A DNA stretch of 64,000 nucleotides from Candidatus Kerfeldbacteria bacterium (GCA_016193315.1 JACPSJ010000001.1:91981-155980), one strand, 5' to 3'. Numbered from the stretch's first letter, positions 3,400-63,215 are shown. The notes: a model not told the origin generated them from the sequence alone. Translations and numbers: made by a program.

Positions 3400-4585
3400 C
3401 CGGTGACCGGGGATTGTGCGTAACGGTTCGTTGGGTCAACATGACGGCGTTGGAAATCGAAAATAGACTGGGCGTAGTCTACCACACTTCGACCGGACTG
3501 ACAAGCCGGCTCTTTAGAGGTTTGCTGGTGGATAAGAAAGGCGCCGAGCTGGGCTCGACGCCGGTACGAAGTTGCAGGTTGCGCTGCTGGCTAGGCCTTG
3601 CAGGCCTGGTGGAGTTCTCGCACTTCCCCGAGACAGGAGGCGTCCGGAAGCGACCTCCCGAACAGCTCGAGAAGGGGCGGCAAGCCATGCCTGAGCTGCT
3701 CGACATCTGCTCTGCTCAGGTCCCGCACGGTCGCCCGCCTACTCGGGTCCGGGTGCTTCACGATGTGCCTCGCTGCGAGTTCACGGAGCCGGGCGGCTTG
3801 AGCTTCCCCGCCCCCCGCCCGCTGGGCTCGCAGACACTCTGTCATCGCGTCACGAATCTCCGTCAGCTGCCCCGCTGTTGCCACTCCAGCGGCACTCATC
3901 GTTTCACTGTTTCTGTTGCCCGTGCCGTTGGCGCGGGCGCTAGAGTCGTTTCCATACGAGTCTCCTACAGGAAGAGGAGTGTTCCTCACAAAATGAGAGG
4001 AACGGAACAGAAACGGTGTCTACTTGCCTCTTACGAGGCGCTGTTCAGCAATACAGCCTCCTTCCTATCGCCGTCCGGGCGATGTGGGGCGAGGCGAAGC
4101 CACGCATATTGCGACAATCGTTGAAGGAGCCTTTTGGAGGGTGGGGACGCGGAGTACTCCGCGGAAGTCAAACCGTGGAGGTCTGGGCAGACGAGTCGGA
4201 CCGCCCATTTTCCACAGGGACCCGGAGGCCCTTTCCTGTCGTTTGACCGGAGACTGGCGCCCCCCAACCCTCCATTTGATTTTGTAGTGTTCACTGTACT
4301 CGGAACCGAAAGTTTGTCAACCCAGTACCACTTTTATGGCACCCCAAAAGTGGTGCTGGGTCAACTCCTAGTGGTGTATGTAAGCGAAAAACGCCCTTTT
4401 TGACCCAGCCTGGGGCAAAAAGATTAGAATCCATTCAAAACCTCATTTCGGCTGCACCGGGCGTATTCGGGCTGCGGCTGGTGGCTCGGGCTCACCGTAG
4501 TTCCCACTACGCTTCGCCCTCCGCCACGGCGTCTCGCCCGCGAATCCGCCCGTTTCGCCAATGAAAGCAGGTTTTGAAATGAGTT

Positions 4586-14535: not shown

Positions 14536-15276
14536 TTAAATCTGACGCTGACGACCGACGATGACCCCTAGTTTCTGCGGCGCGACTTCAATGGTCCGCG
14601 GCGCCTTGAGCACGATTTGGCCGTCGAGCAGCAGGCTGGCGGCCGGGGCCGAACTGGCGATGGTGGCTCGGCGGATGAGGAAGACGCTGGACGGTCCGTA
14701 ATGACGGCGCCAGAGCGACCAGCCATGGGCGTCCGACTTGACGATCAGCTCCAGCCGGCCGTCAGTCGGCCGCCTCTCGAGGTCGTCAGAGCCGAGGTTG
14801 CCGATGACAAAGGTATTGGCTGGATCAACTGAGGCCACCGTATATTGGCCGTCACACTCAACCCGCTCGACGGCGGTCAGCCGCGCATCGCGGAGGAAAT
14901 ACTGATTGTCTACTTTTCCGACGTCCAGGTGGCGGATGATTCGGCGCGACAGCACGTCGCAAGCCGCCAGCCCGGTCGGAATACCGAGCGCCGCGGCGAT
15001 TGTTTGCGGCTGCCCGAACGGAATCAATCCGAGCGTCACGCCACCATCAACAACCAACGGTAAAAGTTTCGTGACCGTCTGGTCGTTGCCGACCGCGACG
15101 ACCGTCGTGGCGCCGCGACGAATAGCCTCTTTTGCCGCCTCGGCGAGATTCTTCAAGATGGTAATTTTTTCGAAACGTCCTTGGATGCCGAGCTGGGCCA
15201 AGCGGTTTTCGATGCGGAGGAGTTCGGTTTGATATTTCTTGTCGTGGAGGAAGCCGTCGACGAGGTAGGCGTACAT
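14536..15276 (-). CDS. diacylglycerol-kinase catalytic-domain (DAGK_cat/YegS-like) protein with degenerate catalytic motifs
   Basis: 246 aa. The fold pattern matches DAGK_cat, but the canonical GGDGT is GNDQT and the second glycine-rich motif is GQPQT. Confidence 0.55.
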   Translation of the reverse strand: MYAYLVDGFLHDKKYQTELLRIENRLAQLGIQGRFEKITILKNLAEAAKEAIRRGATTVVAVGNDQTVTKLLPLVVDGGVTLGLIPFGQPQTIAAALGIPTGLAACDVLSRRIIRHLDVGKVDNQYFLRDARLTAVERVECDGQYTVASVDPANTFVIGNLGSDDLERRPTDGRLELIVKSDAHGWSLWRRHYGPSSVFLIRRATIASSAPAASLLLDGQIVLKAPRTIEVAPQKLGVIVGRQRQI

Positions 15277-16283: not shown

Positions 16284-16357
16284 GCCCCTGTAGTTCAATT
16301 GGATAGAACGGCCCCGTCCTAAGGGGCAAATCCTGGTTCAAGTCCAGGTAGGGGCAA
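16284..16357 (+). tRNA. tRNA-Arg (anticodon CCT)
   Basis: Cloverleaf built by hand: acceptor GCCCCTG/TAGGGGC, anticodon stem GCCCC/GGGGC, loop GTCCTAA. CCA not encoded. End coordinate is approximate (+/-2 nt). Confidence 0.75.
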
Positions 16358-16439
16358 AGCAAATGCGTATCTAAGACTCGTGTTTATCAGCACTGACGGG
16401 ATATAAATTGTCTGTAGACTTGCGTCCCGCGCCAATTTT

Positions 16440-16512
16440 GGGCCGTTAGCTCAGTTGGTAGAGCACTTCCATGGCATGGAAGGGGTCAGGAGTTCGAGTC
16501 TCCTACGGTCCA
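16440..16512 (+). tRNA. tRNA-Ala (anticodon GGC)
   Basis: Acceptor GGGCCGT/ACGGTCC with the G3:U70 Ala identity pair. Anticodon stem CTTCC/GGAAG, loop ATGGCAT. Confidence 0.85.
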
Positions 16513-16696
16513 GAATTGCGGCGGGAAGGCGACCGGTTCCACCCCGGTATGTTCCAGCAATGGCTCGGAAAGGTAAGGACTTTAGAGTCCAAACGGTCGA
16601 AAGCAGACACGACGTTCTTCCTATCGAGTTAGAACGTGATAAGGTTTCCAATGGTAATAACATAGATAATGCCATCCAAATGAGTAATTTTTTAGA

Positions 16697-16776
16697 TGTT
16701 CCACGAGGAACAATCAGGTATTAGGAGATGTTCCACGAGGAACAATCGCAAAAACGAAAATGTTCCACGAGGAACA
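16697..16776. promoter_or_regulatory. tandem array of three perfect 16-bp palindromes TGTTCCACGAGGAACA (20-nt conserved unit ATGTTCCACGAGGAACAATC/ATT) at exactly 32-bp spacing
   Basis: Copies at 16697-16712, 16729-16744 and 16761-16776. The first two share 20 identical nt. The third abuts the -35 of the promoter at 16777. Confidence 0.6.
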
Positions 16777-16805
16777 TTGACAAGAGAAAGGTAAAGTGTT
16801 ATAGT
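16777..16805 (+). promoter_or_regulatory. near-consensus sigma70 promoter, TTGACA-17-TATAGT
   Basis: TTGACA at 16777-82, a 17-nt spacer, TATAGT at 16800-05. No CDS downstream; the transcript would enter the tRNA-Ala fragment cluster. Confidence 0.5.
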
Positions 16806-16950
16806 ATGGGGAGTTCTCATTGATGACTCTTTGAATCAAGGTAATTTGCATAGTATCGCATTCGTACTCTCAAAAGCTGGGGATGTAGTTCACCCGTAAT
16901 TTCCTAGAGGGCGGGCAATGGCCGGGCATCTCATTCGTCCCCCACCATTT

Positions 16951-16990
16951 GGGCTCATAGCTCAATTGGTAGAGAACTGCATTCGACCAG
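16951..16990 (+). pseudogene. 5'-half tRNA-Ala-like fragment (acceptor + D arm + anticodon 5' stem, no T arm)
   Basis: GGGCTCATAGCTCAATTGGTAGAGAACTGCATTCGACC parallels tRNA-Ala(CGC) 17001.. through the anticodon loop, then diverges. Confidence 0.5.
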
Positions 16991-17000
16991 TACCTTTTCC

Positions 17001-17073
17001 GGGCCGTTAGCTCAGCTGGTAGAGCGCTGCATTCGCATTGCAGAGGTCAGCGGTTCGAATCCGCTACGGTCCA
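17001..17073 (+). tRNA. tRNA-Ala (anticodon CGC)
   Basis: Acceptor GGGCCGT/ACGGTCC (G3:U70). Anticodon stem CTGCA/TGCAG, loop TTCGCAT. Confidence 0.85.
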
Positions 17074-17079
17074 AAAAAG

Positions 17080-17240
17080 GTGCTGGACGGGGTTGGGGGT
17101 TCAAATCCCTCATCTCCACCAAACACAGGCAAGCAGGCGGGGCGCCGCAGTAGCATTGCGGAGTTGGCCGGTTCGATTGCGGCTGGGTCCAAATGGTGGT
17201 GTTTAGAGCTTCAGGGTTCAAATCGGCTAGACCCGCGGAC
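17080..17240 (+). repeat. three degenerate tRNA 3'-end (T-arm + acceptor) fragments in tandem
   Basis: GGGGGTTCAAATCCCTCATCTCCACCA; GGTTCGATTGCGGCTGGGTCCA (compare Ala 3' end GGTTCGAATCCGCTACGGTCCA); GGGTTCAAATCGGCTAGACCCG. Confidence 0.45.
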
Positions 17241-17254
17241 TATTTTCTGAAATC

Positions 17255-18088
17255 ATGGAGAAATTATTCATCAAGAATCGTCATAATCAGAAGTTAGCCG
17301 TTGTAGTTGAGAAAAGGCCGAGCCAAGCAGGGCTTGCTTTTGTCATGCACGGGCAGAGCGGATTTAAGGAACAACCCCACGTTCGAACGTTTATTGATGC
17401 ATTCCTAGAAAAAGGGTTTACGGTCGTCAGTTTTGATGTTGCAAACACCATTGGAGAGAGCGAAGGCAACGCGTCAGACGCAACCATCACGAGTTATTAC
17501 GAGGACTTAGTGGATGTTGTGAAATGGTCTGAATCACAAGAATGGTACGAAGAACCATTTGCTCTTGCTGGGCATAGCCTAGGAGGTATTTGTAGTGCTT
17601 TGTACGCGGAGAACCACCCCTCCAAAGTTAAGGCACTTGCGCCTATATCAACAGTTGTGTCGGGAAAACTAAGCTATGAAGCCCATCCGAAAGAAGAACT
17701 CAAAGAATGGAAGCGTACCGGGTGGCAAATAAAGCACAGTAAATCCAAGCCTGGCGTCACAATACGACTTCCTTGGTCAAATATGGAAGATCGTCTGAAA
17801 TACGATTTACTAAAAAAAGCGGGTCAGCTTACAATGCCAGTTTTGTTAATAGTTGGAGAAAAAGATGACGGGACTCCACCGAAACACCAAAAACTACTCT
17901 TTGATGCAATTCCGGGCAACAAAGAGCTTCATGTCATCAGGGATGCGCCACACACTTTTCGAGAAAAGGCACAGCTAGATGAGATTAAATATATATTTCT
18001 GAAGTGGATCGACAAAGTGAAAGCATTTGCCGCGAAAGAAAAATCGAATAAGATTGTTTCCCACGGCTTCGGTGGCGGAAAAACTTGA
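17255..18088 (+). CDS. alpha/beta-hydrolase fold protein (AT-rich, probably horizontally acquired)
   Basis: 277 aa. Nucleophile elbow GHSLGG. Visibly lower GC than the flanking sequence. Confidence 0.75.
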   Translation: MEKLFIKNRHNQKLAVVVEKRPSQAGLAFVMHGQSGFKEQPHVRTFIDAFLEKGFTVVSFDVANTIGESEGNASDATITSYYEDLVDVVKWSESQEWYEEPFALAGHSLGGICSALYAENHPSKVKALAPISTVVSGKLSYEAHPKEELKEWKRTGWQIKHSKSKPGVTIRLPWSNMEDRLKYDLLKKAGQLTMPVLLIVGEKDDGTPPKHQKLLFDAIPGNKELHVIRDAPHTFREKAQLDEIKYIFLKWIDKVKAFAAKEKSNKIVSHGFGGGKT

Positions 18089-18217: not shown

Positions 18218-18331
18218 GACTCAACCCCGTTAGCAGTGGCCGAAACGCGCTCTCTGAAAAAGGCAACGATTCTCGCACCATCTAACACTTTGACGGAAAC
18301 CTCCGCACTTCCACTTCTAACGGGGTTGACA
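18218..18331. repeat. inverted-repeat pair CAACCCCGTTAG ... CTAACGGGGTTGACA; the right arm supplies the -35 of the CsoR-like gene promoter
   Basis: Left arm 18222-18237, right arm 18308-18331. The same motif recurs at 29482-29602 and at 11552-11575. Confidence 0.4.
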
Positions 18332-18332
18332 A

Positions 18333-18349
18333 ATACCCCCTGGGGGTAT
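18333..18349. promoter_or_regulatory. perfect 17-bp palindrome ATACCCCCTGGGGGTAT between -35 (TTGACA 18326-31) and -10; a CsoR-type operator candidate
   Basis: GC-rich TACCC...GGGTA inverted repeats are the known operator type for the CsoR family. It is positioned inside the promoter spacer of the CsoR-like gene. Confidence 0.5.
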
Positions 18350-18360
18350 ATGCTGTGTAT

Positions 18361-18612
18361 ATGCGCCGCGCGTCACGGACTATCAGTGCTAGAATTCACC
18401 GCCTCATTGGCCAGCTGCGGGCGGTCGAGGGGATGATTGTACGGAAACGCTCGTGCACGGAGATCCTCTATCAGGTCAGCGCGGTGCGGGCCGGTATCGA
18501 GCAGGTAGCGAACATCCTGTTCTTACGGGAACTCGAGCGGCTAGCCAAGACGAAGAGATGGCGCGACCCGGATTTGGCCAAGTTAATTCAATTGTACTCT
18601 CAGACCACCTAG
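18361..18612 (+). CDS. CsoR/RcnR/FrmR-family (DUF156) transcriptional repressor; probably a leaderless mRNA
   Basis: ORF track 18355 (GTG) ..18612. The ATG at 18361 lies ~7 nt after the -10. RIHRLIGQLRAVEGMIVRKRSCTEILYQVSAVRAGIEQV matches the CsoR helix bundle. Only the first Cys ligand is conserved; the His/second Cys positions are Leu/Arg. Confidence 0.7.
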   Translation: MRRASRTISARIHRLIGQLRAVEGMIVRKRSCTEILYQVSAVRAGIEQVANILFLRELERLAKTKRWRDPDLAKLIQLYSQTT

Positions 18613-53527: not shown

Positions 53528-53589
53528 TCAGTTGATCGAAATATGTTTTTGTGCTATAGTCGCCGCTGCCCTGGCCTGGTAGCCAAGTG

Positions 53590-53763
53590 GGGGAGGTGGA
53601 CCGCAATCCCGCCCCACATCGGCCCCAACGAGATAGCCTTTCATACGGCCACGTAGCCAAGGGGTAAGGCAGGAGTCTGCAAAACTCCTATTCGCGGGTT
53701 CGATTCCCGCCGTGGCCTCAAACTAGGAAAATGGGCCGATGTGGGGCGGGACGAATCCCCTCC
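53590..53763. repeat. inverted repeat (GGAGG...TCCCGCCCCACATCGGCC / GGCCGATGTGGGGCGGGA...CCTCC) bracketing tRNA-Cys
   Basis: 18-nt perfect complementarity (53607-53624 with 53735-53752), plus outer GGAGG/CCTCC; the tRNA sits in the loop. Confidence 0.5.
53647..53718 (+). tRNA. tRNA-Cys (anticodon GCA)
   Basis: Acceptor GGCCACG/CGTGGCC, discriminator U. Anticodon stem GGAGT/ACTCC, loop CTGCAAA. Confidence 0.85.
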
Positions 53764-53820
53764 AGGCCTGAATGCGGGAGTAGTTTCCGGCGAAGCCGGA
53801 TCCGGCTTCGCCGGACAGCA

Positions 53821-53965
<145 letters not shown>

Positions 53966-54047
53966 CAAGGAAGAGGTCGTCCCGCACCGGACGGTGCGGG
54001 ATCTCCCGCTCCAAACCATGAATCTCGCACTAGACGAGCGACACCCC

Positions 54048-54297: not shown

Positions 54298-55056
54298 ATG
54301 AATTTGGATGCTATAACTGAAATTGTTAAACGAGGATATACAGATAAAGAAGTTGCAAAACACTACGGGAGTGTTACAGAAATCTGGCCTGAAGAAAAAT
54401 TTATTTTCGATAGATTTTTCAAAAATGTTGGGCATATTCTCGATATAGGTTGCGGTGGTGGCCGCACTTCTTTTTACTTGGCCAGTCTTGGTAATAAAGT
54501 TACAGCAATTGATTTGTCGTCCCCGCTCATAGGGGCCGCAAAGCGAAGGCTTGCGAAAGAACCGGCGAATATTGAGTTTGATGTTAAAGACGACCAACAT
54601 TTAGGTTATCCAGATAATTATTTTGACGGAATAATTTTTTCATTTAATGGCATTGGATATATTGCGCGGGCAGAAGGAAAAACGGAGTTTCTAAAGGTGG
54701 TTCGTAGAATGTTGAAACAAGATAAATTTTTCTTTTTTACAGCACATAATTTGTGGTCAATAAACGCATATTTTCTGGGCAACATTCTGCGGGTTACAAA
54801 AATATTATTCTCAAAATTATTCCATATCAATATTCGGGAAAAAGAATATGGGGAAAAATATGATGATACGCCTAATATTGAAGTCCCATATATTGATATC
54901 AAGCCCAAAAGGAAATGGGACGAGATTATCAAACAATCTGAATTTAAGGTTGCGTATTTTAATTCTAAATATGGCATAAGAGATAAAAGATCATTTTCTC
55001 TATTCAAAGATTATTCTGGTGCAAGTAACTATTTGTTCTTTGTATTGCAGAAATAA
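54298..55056 (+). CDS. class I SAM-dependent methyltransferase (strongly AT-rich, likely horizontally acquired)
   Basis: 252 aa. Motif I ILDIGCGGGRTSFYL. GC visibly far below the window average, immediately 3' of tRNA-Leu. Confidence 0.7.
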   Translation: MNLDAITEIVKRGYTDKEVAKHYGSVTEIWPEEKFIFDRFFKNVGHILDIGCGGGRTSFYLASLGNKVTAIDLSSPLIGAAKRRLAKEPANIEFDVKDDQHLGYPDNYFDGIIFSFNGIGYIARAEGKTEFLKVVRRMLKQDKFFFFTAHNLWSINAYFLGNILRVTKILFSKLFHINIREKEYGEKYDDTPNIEVPYIDIKPKRKWDEIIKQSEFKVAYFNSKYGIRDKRSFSLFKDYSGASNYLFFVLQK

Positions 55057-62309: not shown

Positions 62310-62473
62310 CGCCGCCACGACTGCCGTCAGGACGAAATAGGATATGTCTTGGTCTTTTTTGGAACAGGTAGCCCGCTTAGGCGACCGCTTCGGTGCGAAG
62401 CGGCATCAACTTGTCCGGCCTCGAAAAAACACTTATGATGTTTAGCGAGAAAGTCGACTCTCTCCTTGGAGCA

Positions 62474-62520
62474 GGTATCGTATAATGGTAATACCTCAGC
62501 TTTCTCCCGCTCATTATTTC
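62474..62520 (+). pseudogene. internally deleted tRNA-Gly-like remnant (D arm + anticodon 5' stem fused to 3' acceptor-like TCCCGCTC)
   Basis: GCAGGTATCGTATAATGGTAATACCTCAGCTTTC|TCCCGCTC parallels tRNA-Gly(TCC) at 62567, with the anticodon-loop-to-T-arm portion missing. Confidence 0.45.
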
Positions 62521-62566
62521 TCTAAACAAAACTGGCGAGATCCCGCAAGACGAATGCGGCTCGCGA

Positions 62567-62637
62567 GCGGGTATCGTATATCGGTATTACCTCAGCTTTC
62601 CAAGCTGATGAGAGGGGTTCGACTCCCCTTACCCGCT
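62567..62637 (+). tRNA. tRNA-Gly (anticodon TCC)
   Basis: Acceptor GCGGGTA/TACCCGC, discriminator U. Anticodon stem TCAGC/GCTGA, loop TTTCCAA. T arm AGGGG-TTCGACT-CCCCT. Confidence 0.85.
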
Positions 62638-62849
62638 CGGGGGCTACAGGCAGCAGCGGGATCCTCGCCGCCAGACGGCCCCGTGCCTCGGCTCGTCGCC
62701 GCCGGACAAGCTGATGCCGCCCCGCACCAGTCCCCGATTCATTCGGGGTTCGGTGCGGGGCTCCCTGCTTTCAGGAGAGATTTAGTTTCGCGGCCGGATC
62801 CCGCCAGGATTATTGTAATTGACGAGGAGCTGGAGAAAGCTGACGGTGA

Positions 62850-63215
62850 TTATTTCTTGTATCGTCGCTCGTTAGTTCGATAGCCGGTATCTTCGGCCCA
62901 AAACAAGAATAGTCTTTTCTTGAAACCACCCTTACGCACAAAAGCCTTTCGTTGTTCCGACTTAATCTGCCGTTCAGAAATTTTGAAAGTCCGCTTGATG
63001 GCGTTGATAACATCGATAGTATCCGCCAACTCACTGGCCATCTCTCGTTTGGACCGCAAGCGGGGCAAACTGCTAGCTTCTTCCCCGACTTTCTTCAGCA
63101 GCTCGCGCTGGTAGGACTTCAGGTCGAGTCTCTTGACTCGAAACGCCGCGCCGTTTTTTTTCATCACCAGCGGCACCCGGTCTCGAATGAGCTTGTGATA
63201 GTAGATTTTTTTCAT
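62850..63215 (-). CDS. putative all-alpha NTP pyrophosphohydrolase (MazG/HisE-like), weak
   Basis: 121 aa. The KLIRDRVP...EELADTIDVINAI pattern is reminiscent of MazG-like house-cleaning enzymes. Low specificity. Confidence 0.4.
   Translation of the reverse strand: MKKIYYHKLIRDRVPLVMKKNGAAFRVKRLDLKSYQRELLKKVGEEASSLPRLRSKREMASELADTIDVINAIKRTFKISERQIKSEQRKAFVRKGGFKKRLFLFWAEDTGYRTNERRYKK

Follow-up and report, generated by a model that had tools for sequence, protein, structure and literature searches.

Why should an intact tRNA gene stand among broken copies of the same gene? The question is raised by positions 16951–18088 of a 64-kb stretch of DNA (the window, by which we mean the whole 64,000 nucleotides analysed) from an uncultured groundwater Candidatus Kerfeldbacteria bacterium, a member of the Parcubacteria within the candidate phyla radiation. 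Here an intact tRNA-Ala(CGC) gene lies between partial tRNA copies and is followed by an AT-rich hydrolase gene. A sequence-only reading made earlier had taken the partial copies for attachment-site (att) duplications left by an integrase, and the hydrolase gene for the cargo of a decayed element. We find that the active gene lies inside an older tRNA-Ala(CGC) gene, which is itself surrounded by remnants of at least one still older copy (16879–16937, 17089–17121 and 17205–17229). The nested anatomy recurs at other tRNA genes of the window and in related bacteria, the inserts are bounded by inverted-repeat arms that fall into families, and tRNA alleles take reciprocal roles in different genomes. 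We estimate at about 0.6 the probability that tRNA-Ala(CGC) genes lie here one within another, like Russian dolls, through repeated replacement by inverted-repeat-flanked cassettes exchanged between relatives, and that the locus is not a row of att scars.

An older tRNA-Ala(CGC) gene around the active one

The tRNA pieces that the sequence-only reading had listed were all recovered. The intact gene was called by ARAGORN and is 95% identical to the un-nested gene of a related assembly (L087). The 5′ half upstream of it (16951–16985) aligns without gaps to positions 1–35 of the intact gene (80% identity), shares 96% identity over 24 nt with the active tRNA-Ala(CGC) of another relative, L092 (E = 2.6e-6), and outscored every one of 500 shuffles (P ≤ 0.002). 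Downstream of the intact gene lie three degenerate pieces with T-arm or acceptor sequences. The first, 17089–17121, gives a local match to the tRNA/tmRNA (transfer-messenger RNA) clan of Rfam, the best model being tmRNA (16 bits, E = 4e-4). The second, 17132–17193, which contains GGTTCGATTGCGGCTGGGTCCA, is 71% identical, again without gaps, to positions 14–73 of the intact gene and the first two bases of its 3′ flank, and is called a degenerate tRNA-Ala by ARAGORN at relaxed threshold only. The third, 17205–17229, was found with a BLAST E-value of about 1e-3 and a shuffle P-value of 0.004. A search of the whole window with about 80 tRNA queries yielded only four matches beyond the intact tRNAs, three of them at the tRNA-Ala(CGC) locus. 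Taken alone, the covariance-model check that the sequence-only reading had proposed does not convince for isolated pieces: the intact gene scored 69 bits with the Rfam tRNA model and 17089–17121 matched its clan locally, but the 5′ half reached 13.9 bits (E = 0.48) in truncated mode and 17132–17193, taken alone, was not recognized by the tRNA model.

The Rfam match of 17089–17121, together with the motifs TTCGAC...GGAC...CTCCACCA, suggested a tmRNA or a two-piece tmRNA, a candidate that we rejected. There is no tag frame and there are no pseudoknots; the 16 bits compare with a gathering score of 47 and come from the T arm and acceptor only; ARAGORN called no tmRNA even at an 80% threshold. The motifs derive from the anticodon loop of tRNA-Ala and from a tRNA allele that is active in the relative L096. 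Like the tRNA-like domain of tmRNA and alanine minihelices, the piece combines a T arm and an encoded ACCA with a G.U third acceptor pair, but it is the remnant of that tRNA-Ala allele. Read from its sequence, 17089–17121 alone would fold as an 11-bp acceptor/T-arm minihelix with a G.U third pair, a discriminator A and an encoded CCA; alanyl-tRNA synthetase can charge minihelices of this kind.

The 5′ half and one of the downstream pieces belong together. The acceptor strands GGGCTCA (in 16951–16985) and TGGGTCC (in the 3′ piece 17145–17191) form seven of seven pairs, including G3.U70, the alanine identity pair, versus three of seven with the neighbouring remnant. Compared with the acceptor of the active gene (GGGCCGT/ACGGTCC), the differences on the two strands compensate each other, which would not be seen in two unrelated decaying fragments. 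Joining of 16951–16985 to 17154–17191 yielded a 73-nt tRNA-Ala(CGC) that ARAGORN called at its default threshold. When the 5′ piece was joined, as a control, to every downstream 45-mer (3381 constructs), a tRNA was called for 3′ starts at 17144–17163 only, and never with the other two downstream remnants. We conclude that 16951–16985 and 17154–17191 are the two ends of one older gene, the shell of the active one. Its 3′ piece retains a mutated anticodon arm (CCGCA-GTAGCAT-TGCGG), a variable loop and a T arm with a G.G mismatch. The insert that splits the shell is about 168 bp long (16986–17153), holds the active tRNA-Ala(CGC) and is bounded by an inverted repeat of 12–17 bp. Where a decayed element had been proposed, nothing but a same-anticodon tRNA and inverted-repeat arms lies between the old halves, with no island remains.

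Two pairs of arms can be recognized (Table 1). The helix between left arm 2 and right arm 2, which bounds the insert, has 12 bp and, when extended, 16 of 17 pairs. Homologues of left arm 2 are present in the relatives L092, L004 and L096, and the stretch AAGGTGCTGGACGG of right arm 2 is identical in L092 at 14 of 14 positions, though the neighbouring diacylglycerol-kinase-like (DAGK) proteins of the two genomes are just 55% identical. Pairing of the arms 1 prolongs the acceptor stem of the older gene into a helix with 17 of 18 positions paired. Both arm helices are recovered in the minimum-free-energy fold of 16815–17250 (z = –3.8). A remnant of a second type of right arm, whose left partner is no longer present in the window locus, abuts the anticodon arm of the older gene.

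The outer remnants form a further layer. The acceptor strand of the 5′ remnant 16879–16937 pairs at seven of seven positions with 17111–17117, inside the 3′ remnant 17089–17121, and the allele type to which it belongs, GGGGAYR/...CTCCACCA, is that of the active tRNA-Ala(CGC) in L096.

Nests at other tRNA genes and in related bacteria

Same-isoacceptor remnants lie beside five of the seven tRNA genes of the window (Ala-CGC, Ala-GGC, Cys, Gly-GCC and Gly-TCC), with shuffle P-values from ≤0.002 to 0.012. The Ala(GGC) remnant is found 14 nt 3′ of the window's own, different, Ala(GGC) gene, and imperfect arms (CCCGCGCCAATT / AATTGCGGCGGG) flank the latter. The nests at the Cys and Gly genes span 53573–54015 and 62385–62850; in the Gly(GCC) shell, long hairpins (53786–53815 and 53977–53998) stand in place of the D and T arms. 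The spliced Cys and Gly(TCC) shells are too decayed to be called by ARAGORN, and the case for these two rests on significant 5′ and 3′ remnants and complementary acceptor strands. Gly(TCC) is, in addition, surrounded by extra inverted shell copies (62392–62424 / 62696–62728 and 62496–62546 / 62793–62843).

Nests were also found in five related Candidatus Kerfeldbacteria assemblies (L004, L086, L092, L095 and L096). The anticodon of the inner tRNA equals that of the shell in every nest. Some of these nests are cleaner than that of the window. The Ala(CGC) shell of L096 becomes a perfect tRNA once its insert is removed, the break lying exactly at 23/24, and the Ala(GGC) nest of the same genome has three layers in proper nesting order. 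In L086 a tRNA-Arg(CCT) is located within the T loop (56/57) of another tRNA-Arg(CCT), and in L004 a tRNA-Arg follows the D loop of another tRNA-Arg; both Arg shells are called tRNA-Arg by ARAGORN at default settings when the insert is taken out, and the fragment E-values go down to 5e-20. Further Ala nests are present in L092 and L095. Plain un-nested genes occupy the same syntenic position in L087 and in the outgroup L005. Among 80 distant Parcubacteria loci from JGI metagenomes, most tRNAs are simple; one contig (L044) has a tRNA-Leu(GAG) inside tRNA-Leu(GAG) remnants, another locus (L012) an 18-nt exact repeat of a 3′ end, and several tRNA-flanking helices proved to be ordinary terminators or unrelated repeats. 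Nests can mislead annotation: at 663–732 of L096, ARAGORN reports the 3′ shell piece plus an arm as a second tRNA-Ala(CGC) that abuts the real gene.

Could such structures be assembly artefacts, strain variants collapsed or concatenated by a metagenome assembler? Repeats of this kind do trouble assemblers, since Logan contigs break at 17038, inside the active tRNA-Ala(CGC) of the window. But from 17038 onwards three independent Logan assemblies have exactly the same sequence, so that the downstream structure is identical in the metagenome-assembled genome and in three independent SRA assemblies; analogous nests of divergent sequence come from contigs of different studies and assemblers (NCBI, ENA, JGI and Logan); and precise complementary breaks with co-varying inverted repeats are unlike mis-assembly. 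We regard an artefact as hardly credible.

The helices that flank the inner tRNAs measure 12–20 bp, and their arms fall into two families. Type-I arms (TCCMGCMCC... / ...GGKGCKGGA) replace the anticodon arm of the shell, with junctions ...TGCG^TCCAGC and GCTGGA^AGGT, and enclose Ala(CGC), Ala(GGC), Cys and Gly(GCC) genes. Type-II arms (CCTGCCCGCC... / ...GGCAGGCGGGG) are found after ...TAGA^ in the D arm in L004 Arg and L096 Ala(CGC) and in the T loop in L086 Arg; in the window, the type-II right junction persists at 17132–17145. Insertion points vary between the anticodon arm, the D arm, the variable region and the T loop. When left and right arms of 14 nests were compared, cognate pairs scored 12.8 versus 6.8 (standard deviation 2.0) for non-cognate ones, and the cognate arm ranked first in 10 of 14 rows and 11 of 14 columns. 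Cognate arms match each other best, and hence left and right arms co-vary. In the 64-kb window no dispersed copies of the arms were found outside the tRNA loci except at 4079–4094 and 4318–4363. The latter is a 16-bp hairpin (about 4318–4363; 4320–4361) whose arms resemble type-I arms (CCAGTACCACTTTT). It belongs to a non-coding stretch of about 600 bp (3990–4585) between an unannotated open reading frame (ORF), itself beside an RNase Y gene, and clpP. This stretch also has long-range complementarity between GGAGGGTGGGG near 4138 and CCCCAACCCTCC near 4262, gave no Rfam match at E ≤ 1 and, judging by these features, could be an unrecognised structured RNA.

Such co-variation would also be expected if the composite were a functional RNA, either with intron-like inserts and spliced shells, so that each locus yields two tRNAs, or with shells and arms selected as processing or stabilising scaffolds for the inner tRNA, comparable to RNase III processing stalks or rRNA intervening sequences. 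The Ala(CGC) shell of L096 and the Arg shell of L086 are perfect tRNAs after insert removal, AAGGTGCTGGACGG is invariant between the window and L092, G.U pairs outnumber A.C in the arms, and shell acceptor helices are still paired and extended by flanking pairs. Most shells are nonetheless dead: that of Gly(GCC) carries hairpins for D and T arms, the Ala shell of L004 has no anticodon arm, and in the older gene of the window the anticodon loop is mutated and the conserved 53:61 pair is a G.G. The un-nested genes of L087 and L005 work without arms, and recent horizontal exchange would explain the conservation equally well. Bulge-helix-bulge and group I or II introns were considered and rejected: no intron family appeared in an Rfam scan at E ≤ 10, no group I intron match included, and the junctions, inspected by eye, have a symmetric internal loop beside the arm helix and not the 3-4-3 bulge-helix-bulge geometry. 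We therefore hold a functional composite to be improbable in general, though an intron or scaffold role may apply in the youngest nests.

The alleles themselves bear on where the copies came from. GGGCCGT, the type of the active Ala(CGC) gene in the window, forms the shell in L096; GGGCTCA, which makes up the shell in the window, belongs to the active gene of L092; and the type of the window's outer remnant, GGGGATG...CTCCACCA, is active in L096. At the Arg locus, L004 has type 1 within type 2, and L086 has type 2 within type 1. The Ala shell of L004 is identical at 22 of 23 positions to the plain gene of the outgroup L005 and at 17 of 23 to L004's own active gene. These reciprocal roles point to horizontal replacement among related lineages and, on the alleles compared, would be hard to explain by local duplication.

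Local duplication is nevertheless to be weighed, in the form of partial tandem duplications by slippage or unequal crossing-over with breakpoints inside the gene and the complementary leader and trailer included, the central copy being later replaced by homologous recombination or gene conversion without any cassette. It finds support in the left side of the window locus, which is a repeated 50-bp unit of a 5′ half plus an arm (L092 also has two units), and in the overlap of the older gene's 5′ and 3′ pieces and the not strictly nested layers of the window; unequal crossing-over between shell and inner halves would give arrays of this kind. The clean nests tell against it: L086 Arg (56/57) and L096 Ala(CGC) (23/24) abut exactly, with no overlap and no loss, which makes two independent partial duplications improbable, since these would not end at the same nucleotide. 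Moreover, the arms are not native flanks in un-nested relatives, the same arm sequences accompany different tRNA species and insertion points, and the shells are alleles of other lineages with compensated acceptor stems. We consider local duplication unlikely.

The hydrolase gene and the surroundings of the locus

The hydrolase gene was correctly suspected to be foreign cargo. Its GC content is 0.441 and its third-codon-position GC content (GC3) 0.417, against 0.569 (standard deviation 0.051) and 0.663 (0.096) for the 42 long ORFs of the window, among which it is second lowest (z about –2.5). Bactofilin and DAGK genes, a tRNA cluster with Arg(CCT), Ala(GGC) and Ala(CGC), and a block with a CsoR-type repressor and thioredoxin follow one another in this order in L004, L005, L087, L092, L095 and L096 as they do in the window. 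In the synteny comparison that the sequence-only reading had proposed, the CsoR block comes directly after the tRNA-Ala(CGC) locus in the relatives, the hydrolase gene being missing from this site in L004, L087, L092, L095 and L096. The hydrolase family has more than 2000 members, 60–85% identical, across Parcubacteria and even Woesearchaeota, a conservation far above that of the native DAGK neighbour. Its closest homologue on a long contig (78% identity; L093, 1–7313) lies 470 bp past a tRNA 3′ end at the contig edge and is followed by genes for a HAD hydrolase, a large serine recombinase, an N6/N4 DNA methyltransferase and a ResIII helicase; from its gene content, this region looks like an integrated mobile element. 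Absence from the site in five relatives, deviant composition and a recombinase-linked homologue together argue that the hydrolase gene is foreign. On the evidence of synteny and composition, we take it to be a separate, recently acquired gene, later than the tRNA nest and independent of it.

These data bear directly on the integrase explanation, in which islands or prophages inserted successively at a tRNA attB, each duplicated the 3′ end and then decayed, with the hydrolase gene as the last cargo. A foreign, tRNA-adjacent hydrolase gene with a homologue in a recombinase-bearing element near a tRNA 3′ end speaks for that explanation, which can also draw on the classic 18-nt exact repeat of L012 and on a second AT-rich gene (54298–55056) directly after a tRNA cluster. 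The tRNA pieces do not follow it. They include 5′ pieces (16879–16937 and 16951–16985), the halves fit together into one gene, and they are other alleles and not copies of a restored 3′ end. All of them (16879–17229) lie 5′ of the hydrolase gene, which no direct repeat brackets; five relatives have nests free of cargo, the hydrolase included; and insertion took place at varied points (D arm, anticodon arm, variable region, T loop), with no confinement to a 3′-end att core. As the sequence-only reading had noted, no integrase is nearby: a Pfam scan of 40 ORFs (all those selected in 0–35 kb and ten at 50–64 kb) revealed no domain of an integrase, a recombinase or a transposase, the scan covering ORFs and not smaller, decayed remnants. 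The att-scar account of the fragments is thus very unlikely, and the label of a hotspot remains fair for a locus that was struck repeatedly. An integron attC-like or IS200/IS605-like insertion was rejected by eye only, since neither G^TT junctions nor a subterminal-hairpin architecture nor an enzyme was seen.

The second AT-rich gene just mentioned is the most AT-rich ORF of the window (GC 0.34, GC3 0.30). It encodes a SAM-dependent methyltransferase, stands directly 3′ of the tRNA Cys-Gly-Leu cluster and looks foreign, with no recombinase nearby. The tRNA flanks of this genome do collect foreign genes, and to that extent the sequence-only reading was right.

Upstream of the nest is a palindrome array (Table 1) with no further copies of TGTTCC-N4-GGAACA in the 64-kb window. 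Two or three copies of it also precede tRNA-Ala(CGC) in L004, L087, L092, L095 and L096, and it is presumed to be the regulatory array of the tRNA-Ala(CGC) transcription unit; the palindrome is probably, from its sequence and placement, a binding site for an unassigned regulator of tRNA transcription. An inverse form, GGAACAnTGTTCC, precedes tRNA-Arg in relatives, with several copies in L005. Transcription of the whole nest, and possibly of the hydrolase gene too, is predicted to start from the sigma-70-like promoter next to the array. On the other side, a 19-bp inverted repeat (18221–18239 / 18311–18329) is located just 5′ of the CsoR promoter. In L095 (2398–2760), a gene for a '23S rRNA intervening sequence protein' (PF05635), which has no counterpart in the window, lies between the thioredoxin reductase and glutamate dehydrogenase genes.

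Table 1. Features of the tRNA-Ala(CGC) locus, its surroundings and other tRNA nests in the window (window coordinates).
Feature	Position	Strand	Remarks
DAGK gene	14536–15276		with the bactofilin gene on one side of the tRNA cluster; product identical to a protein annotated in a Candidatus Kerfeldbacteria metagenome-assembled genome
tRNA-Arg(CCT)	16284–16356		member of the tRNA cluster
tRNA-Ala(GGC)	16439–16513		member of the tRNA cluster
Ala(GGC) 3′ remnant	16527–16559		positions 44–76 of the relatives' allele, ending CCAGCA; P ≤ 0.002
Palindrome array, three copies of TGTTCCACGAGGAACA	16697, 16729, 16761 (16697–16776)	+	exact 32-bp spacing; last copy abuts the –35 hexamer
Sigma-70-like promoter TTGACA-17-TATAGT	16777–16805	+	11/12 matches, TG extension
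Outermost, most decayed 5′ tRNA remnant	16879–16937	+	GGGGATGTAGTTCA ... CATTCG; from sequence, aligned to the homologous L092 piece
Left arm 1, type I	16938–16950	+	TCCCCCACCATTT; pairs with 17191–17201
5′ piece of older tRNA-Ala(CGC)	16951–16985	+	positions 1–35; acceptor GGGCTCA
Left arm 2, type I	16986–16998	+	ACCAGTACCTTTT; CCAGTACCTTTT at 16987–16998 pairs with 17075–17086
Active tRNA-Ala(CGC)	17001–17073	+	ARAGORN; Rfam tRNA 69 bits; G3.U70; CCA not encoded
Right arm 2	17075–17091	+	AAAAGGTGCTGG (17075–17086), then ACGGG
3′ remnant of GGGGATG-type allele	17089–17121	+	T arm, acceptor strand CATCTCC, ACCA
Type-II right-arm remnant	17132–17145	+	AGCAGGCGGGGCG; abuts anticodon arm of older gene, as in L096 Ala(CGC) and L004 Arg
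3′ piece of older tRNA-Ala(CGC)	17145–17191	+	acceptor TGGGTCC + A; exact-fit junction 17154
Right arm 1	17191–17201	+	AAATGGTGGTG; partner of 16938–16950
Outermost T-arm remnant	17205–17229	+	GGGTTCAAATC in common with 17097–17107; allele too decayed to assign
Alpha/beta-hydrolase gene	17255–18088	+	277 aa, AT-rich
Native right flank	18326–18612	+	promoter-like site, CsoR operator palindrome, CsoR-family repressor gene
CsoR operator palindrome	18333–18349		ATACCCCCTGGGGGTAT; form ATACCCCC-N-GGGGGTAT kept in all relatives
Cys 5′ remnant	53573–53590		perfect 19-bp arms 53607–53625 / 53733–53751
Gly(GCC) remnants	53774–53785, 54002–54012		20-bp arms 53824–53843 / 53941–53960
Gly(TCC) 5′ remnant	62471–62504		E = 1e-5; arms imperfect, with indels

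Proposed replacement by tRNA cassettes and its relation to known elements

How could such nests arise? In the replacement reading that we favour, each layer would represent one event, in which a left arm, a tRNA of the same anticodon and a right arm enter a loop or arm of the resident gene; the insertion would destroy the resident tRNA gene and at the same time supply its substitute. New copies would arrive from related Kerfeldbacteria by horizontal transfer, a source suggested because alleles that are dead as a shell in one genome are active in another. The driver may be passive: the shell halves (about 25–55 bp) could serve as homology arms for recombination after DNA uptake and could bring the cassette into whichever intact tRNA is homologous, even when this is the inner gene of a nest. 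Homology of this kind would explain the isoacceptor match, the recurrent junctions and the layering. Alternatively, or in addition, an active driver may operate, a dedicated enzyme that recognizes the two arm families and structured tRNA DNA; insertions of the right tRNA only would then survive, because the host genomes have single-copy tRNAs.

At the RNA level, the whole nest could be made as one transcript from the promoter and its palindromes. The arms and the old acceptor strands would be expected, from their complementarity, to form long leader-trailer duplexes of the type cut by RNase III-like enzymes, and RNase P together with a 3′ processing nuclease may then free the single functional tRNA.

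Several observations count against replacement by cassettes. The layers of the window follow the order c5′, b5′, active gene, c3′, b3′ (letters denoting allele types) and so are not perfectly nested. The two pieces of its older gene overlap (positions 1–35 versus about 14/25–76, that is by 9–22 nt), for which there is no counterpart at the other nests. The imperfect order and the overlap imply secondary deletions or unequal exchanges between direct repeats, and extra rearrangements of this sort (deletion between direct repeats, unequal crossing-over) must be assumed for the window. With the Rfam tRNA model, fragments taken singly do not rise above background, so that the argument rests on the joined pieces, on BLAST and shuffle statistics and on the relatives. 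The ratio of G.U to A.C in the arms, 15:3, is inflated by a helix finder that tolerates G.U, and a hand count of interior pairs gives about 10:3, which is not significant; selection on the arms at the RNA level is thus not established by these counts. In the loci analysed we identified no insertion enzyme, no consistent target-site duplication and no common target motif. Finally, transformation is generally thought to favour deletions over insertions, and if homologous recombination alone spread the cassettes passively, drift or some further advantage would be required. Among target motifs, 'TTC^' is a candidate of partial fit: five junctions agree with it (in the T loop, GGTTC^; in anticodon loops, TTC^G and TTTC^C), and those of Cys, Gly(GCC) and L004 Arg do not.

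The nests resemble several known systems, each of which shares some of their features and fails at least one defining test. Genomic islands, prophages and integrative and conjugative elements integrate at tRNA genes, and their attL and attR duplicate the 3′ part of the tRNA. A survey of integrative and conjugative elements is available (PMC3218068). As with tRNA-integrated islands, a tRNA is targeted, its function is restored by the incoming DNA, old remnants are left and cargo is found beside the tRNA (the hydrolase gene and the methyltransferase gene 54298–55056). Unlike in islands, the incoming tRNA is complete and not a 3′ segment, both old halves are kept, one on either side, and the insert is of about 100–250 bp, with inverted-repeat arms, no integrase and varying insertion points. 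Cargo that is absent from the site in relatives and deviant in composition, as expected of an island, is represented by the hydrolase gene only, and not by the tRNA fragments.

Disrupted tRNA genes, with non-canonical introns or in split or permuted form, are among the cases described for Archaea and the red alga Cyanidioschyzon (PMC4033280, PMC4390854). They share with the nests short, helix-bounded inserts at varied loop and arm positions whose removal restores the cloverleaf. In our material, insert removal restores a canonical tRNA (ARAGORN default) for the window gene, L004 Arg, L086 Arg and L096 Ala(CGC), and not for Cys and Gly(TCC). Disrupted genes are, however, functional and spliced at bulge-helix-bulge motifs by a dedicated endonuclease, whereas the nests are bacterial, their interrupted copies are mostly decayed, and what is inserted is itself a whole tRNA with the shell's anticodon.

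Intervening sequences (IVS) of bacterial 23S and 16S rRNA are excised by RNase III without re-ligation, and the rRNA insertions of the candidate phyla radiation are related to them. Like IVS, the nests are sporadic, apparently horizontal inserts in loops of a structured RNA, and a long stem, perfect or nearly so, bounds the insert, as is characteristic of IVS, and offers a potential RNase III substrate. But IVS-bearing rRNAs work in pieces, while in the nests the cargo takes the place of the host tRNA, which is lost. Miniature inverted-repeat elements (MITEs) are small, non-autonomous and bounded by inverted repeats; 'minimal mobile elements' of Neisseria move by transformation and flanking homology. 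The cassettes are like MITEs in being short, in having terminal inverted repeats that belong to families common to several loci and genomes, and in occurring in hairpin-only versions (4318–4363, 53786–53815 and 53977–53998), and they could use flanking homology for their spread as minimal mobile elements do. They differ from MITEs in that the clean junctions of L086 and L096 have no target-site duplication and no cognate transposase was found in the scan, in their tiny copy number and restriction to tRNA genes, and in a cargo that is always the tRNA that was struck.

There is a substantial chance that the nests represent a new class of element. In a full-text literature search, which did not extend to subscription journals, we found no description of bacterial tRNA genes nested in same-isoacceptor remnants. 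As a wider proposal, which we advance tentatively and with the odds somewhat against it, Parcubacteria, or at the least the Kerfeldbacteria among them, may carry unrecognised self-rescuing mobile cassettes of at least two inverted-repeat families that insert in loops or arms of tRNA genes and bring an entire replacement tRNA of the same anticodon. The tRNA alleles of different lineages would then overwrite each other and leave shells behind; the arms may act as processing stems, and CCA-ended minihelices might be charged.

For the annotation of such genomes, caution is advisable, as nests can inflate automatic tRNA counts (a shell is called in L096) and assemblies break at tRNAs. If the reading is true, the nests would also be natural counterparts of engineered tRNA scaffolds, in which a tRNA-like fold bears an RNA on a lengthened arm, here a further tRNA. 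Candidates for the driver of turnover are tRNA-targeting toxins, a dedicated nuclease or recombinase, and plain transformation. tRNA genes commonly count as the most static of genes and, for integrases, as passive landing sites. In the present genomes they seem to be overwritten repeatedly by copies from relatives, in organisms with one gene per anticodon. If true, this would be a new route for the horizontal replacement of essential RNA genes, and the shells would provide a built-in fossil record that dates and directs gene flow among uncultured bacteria of the candidate phyla radiation.

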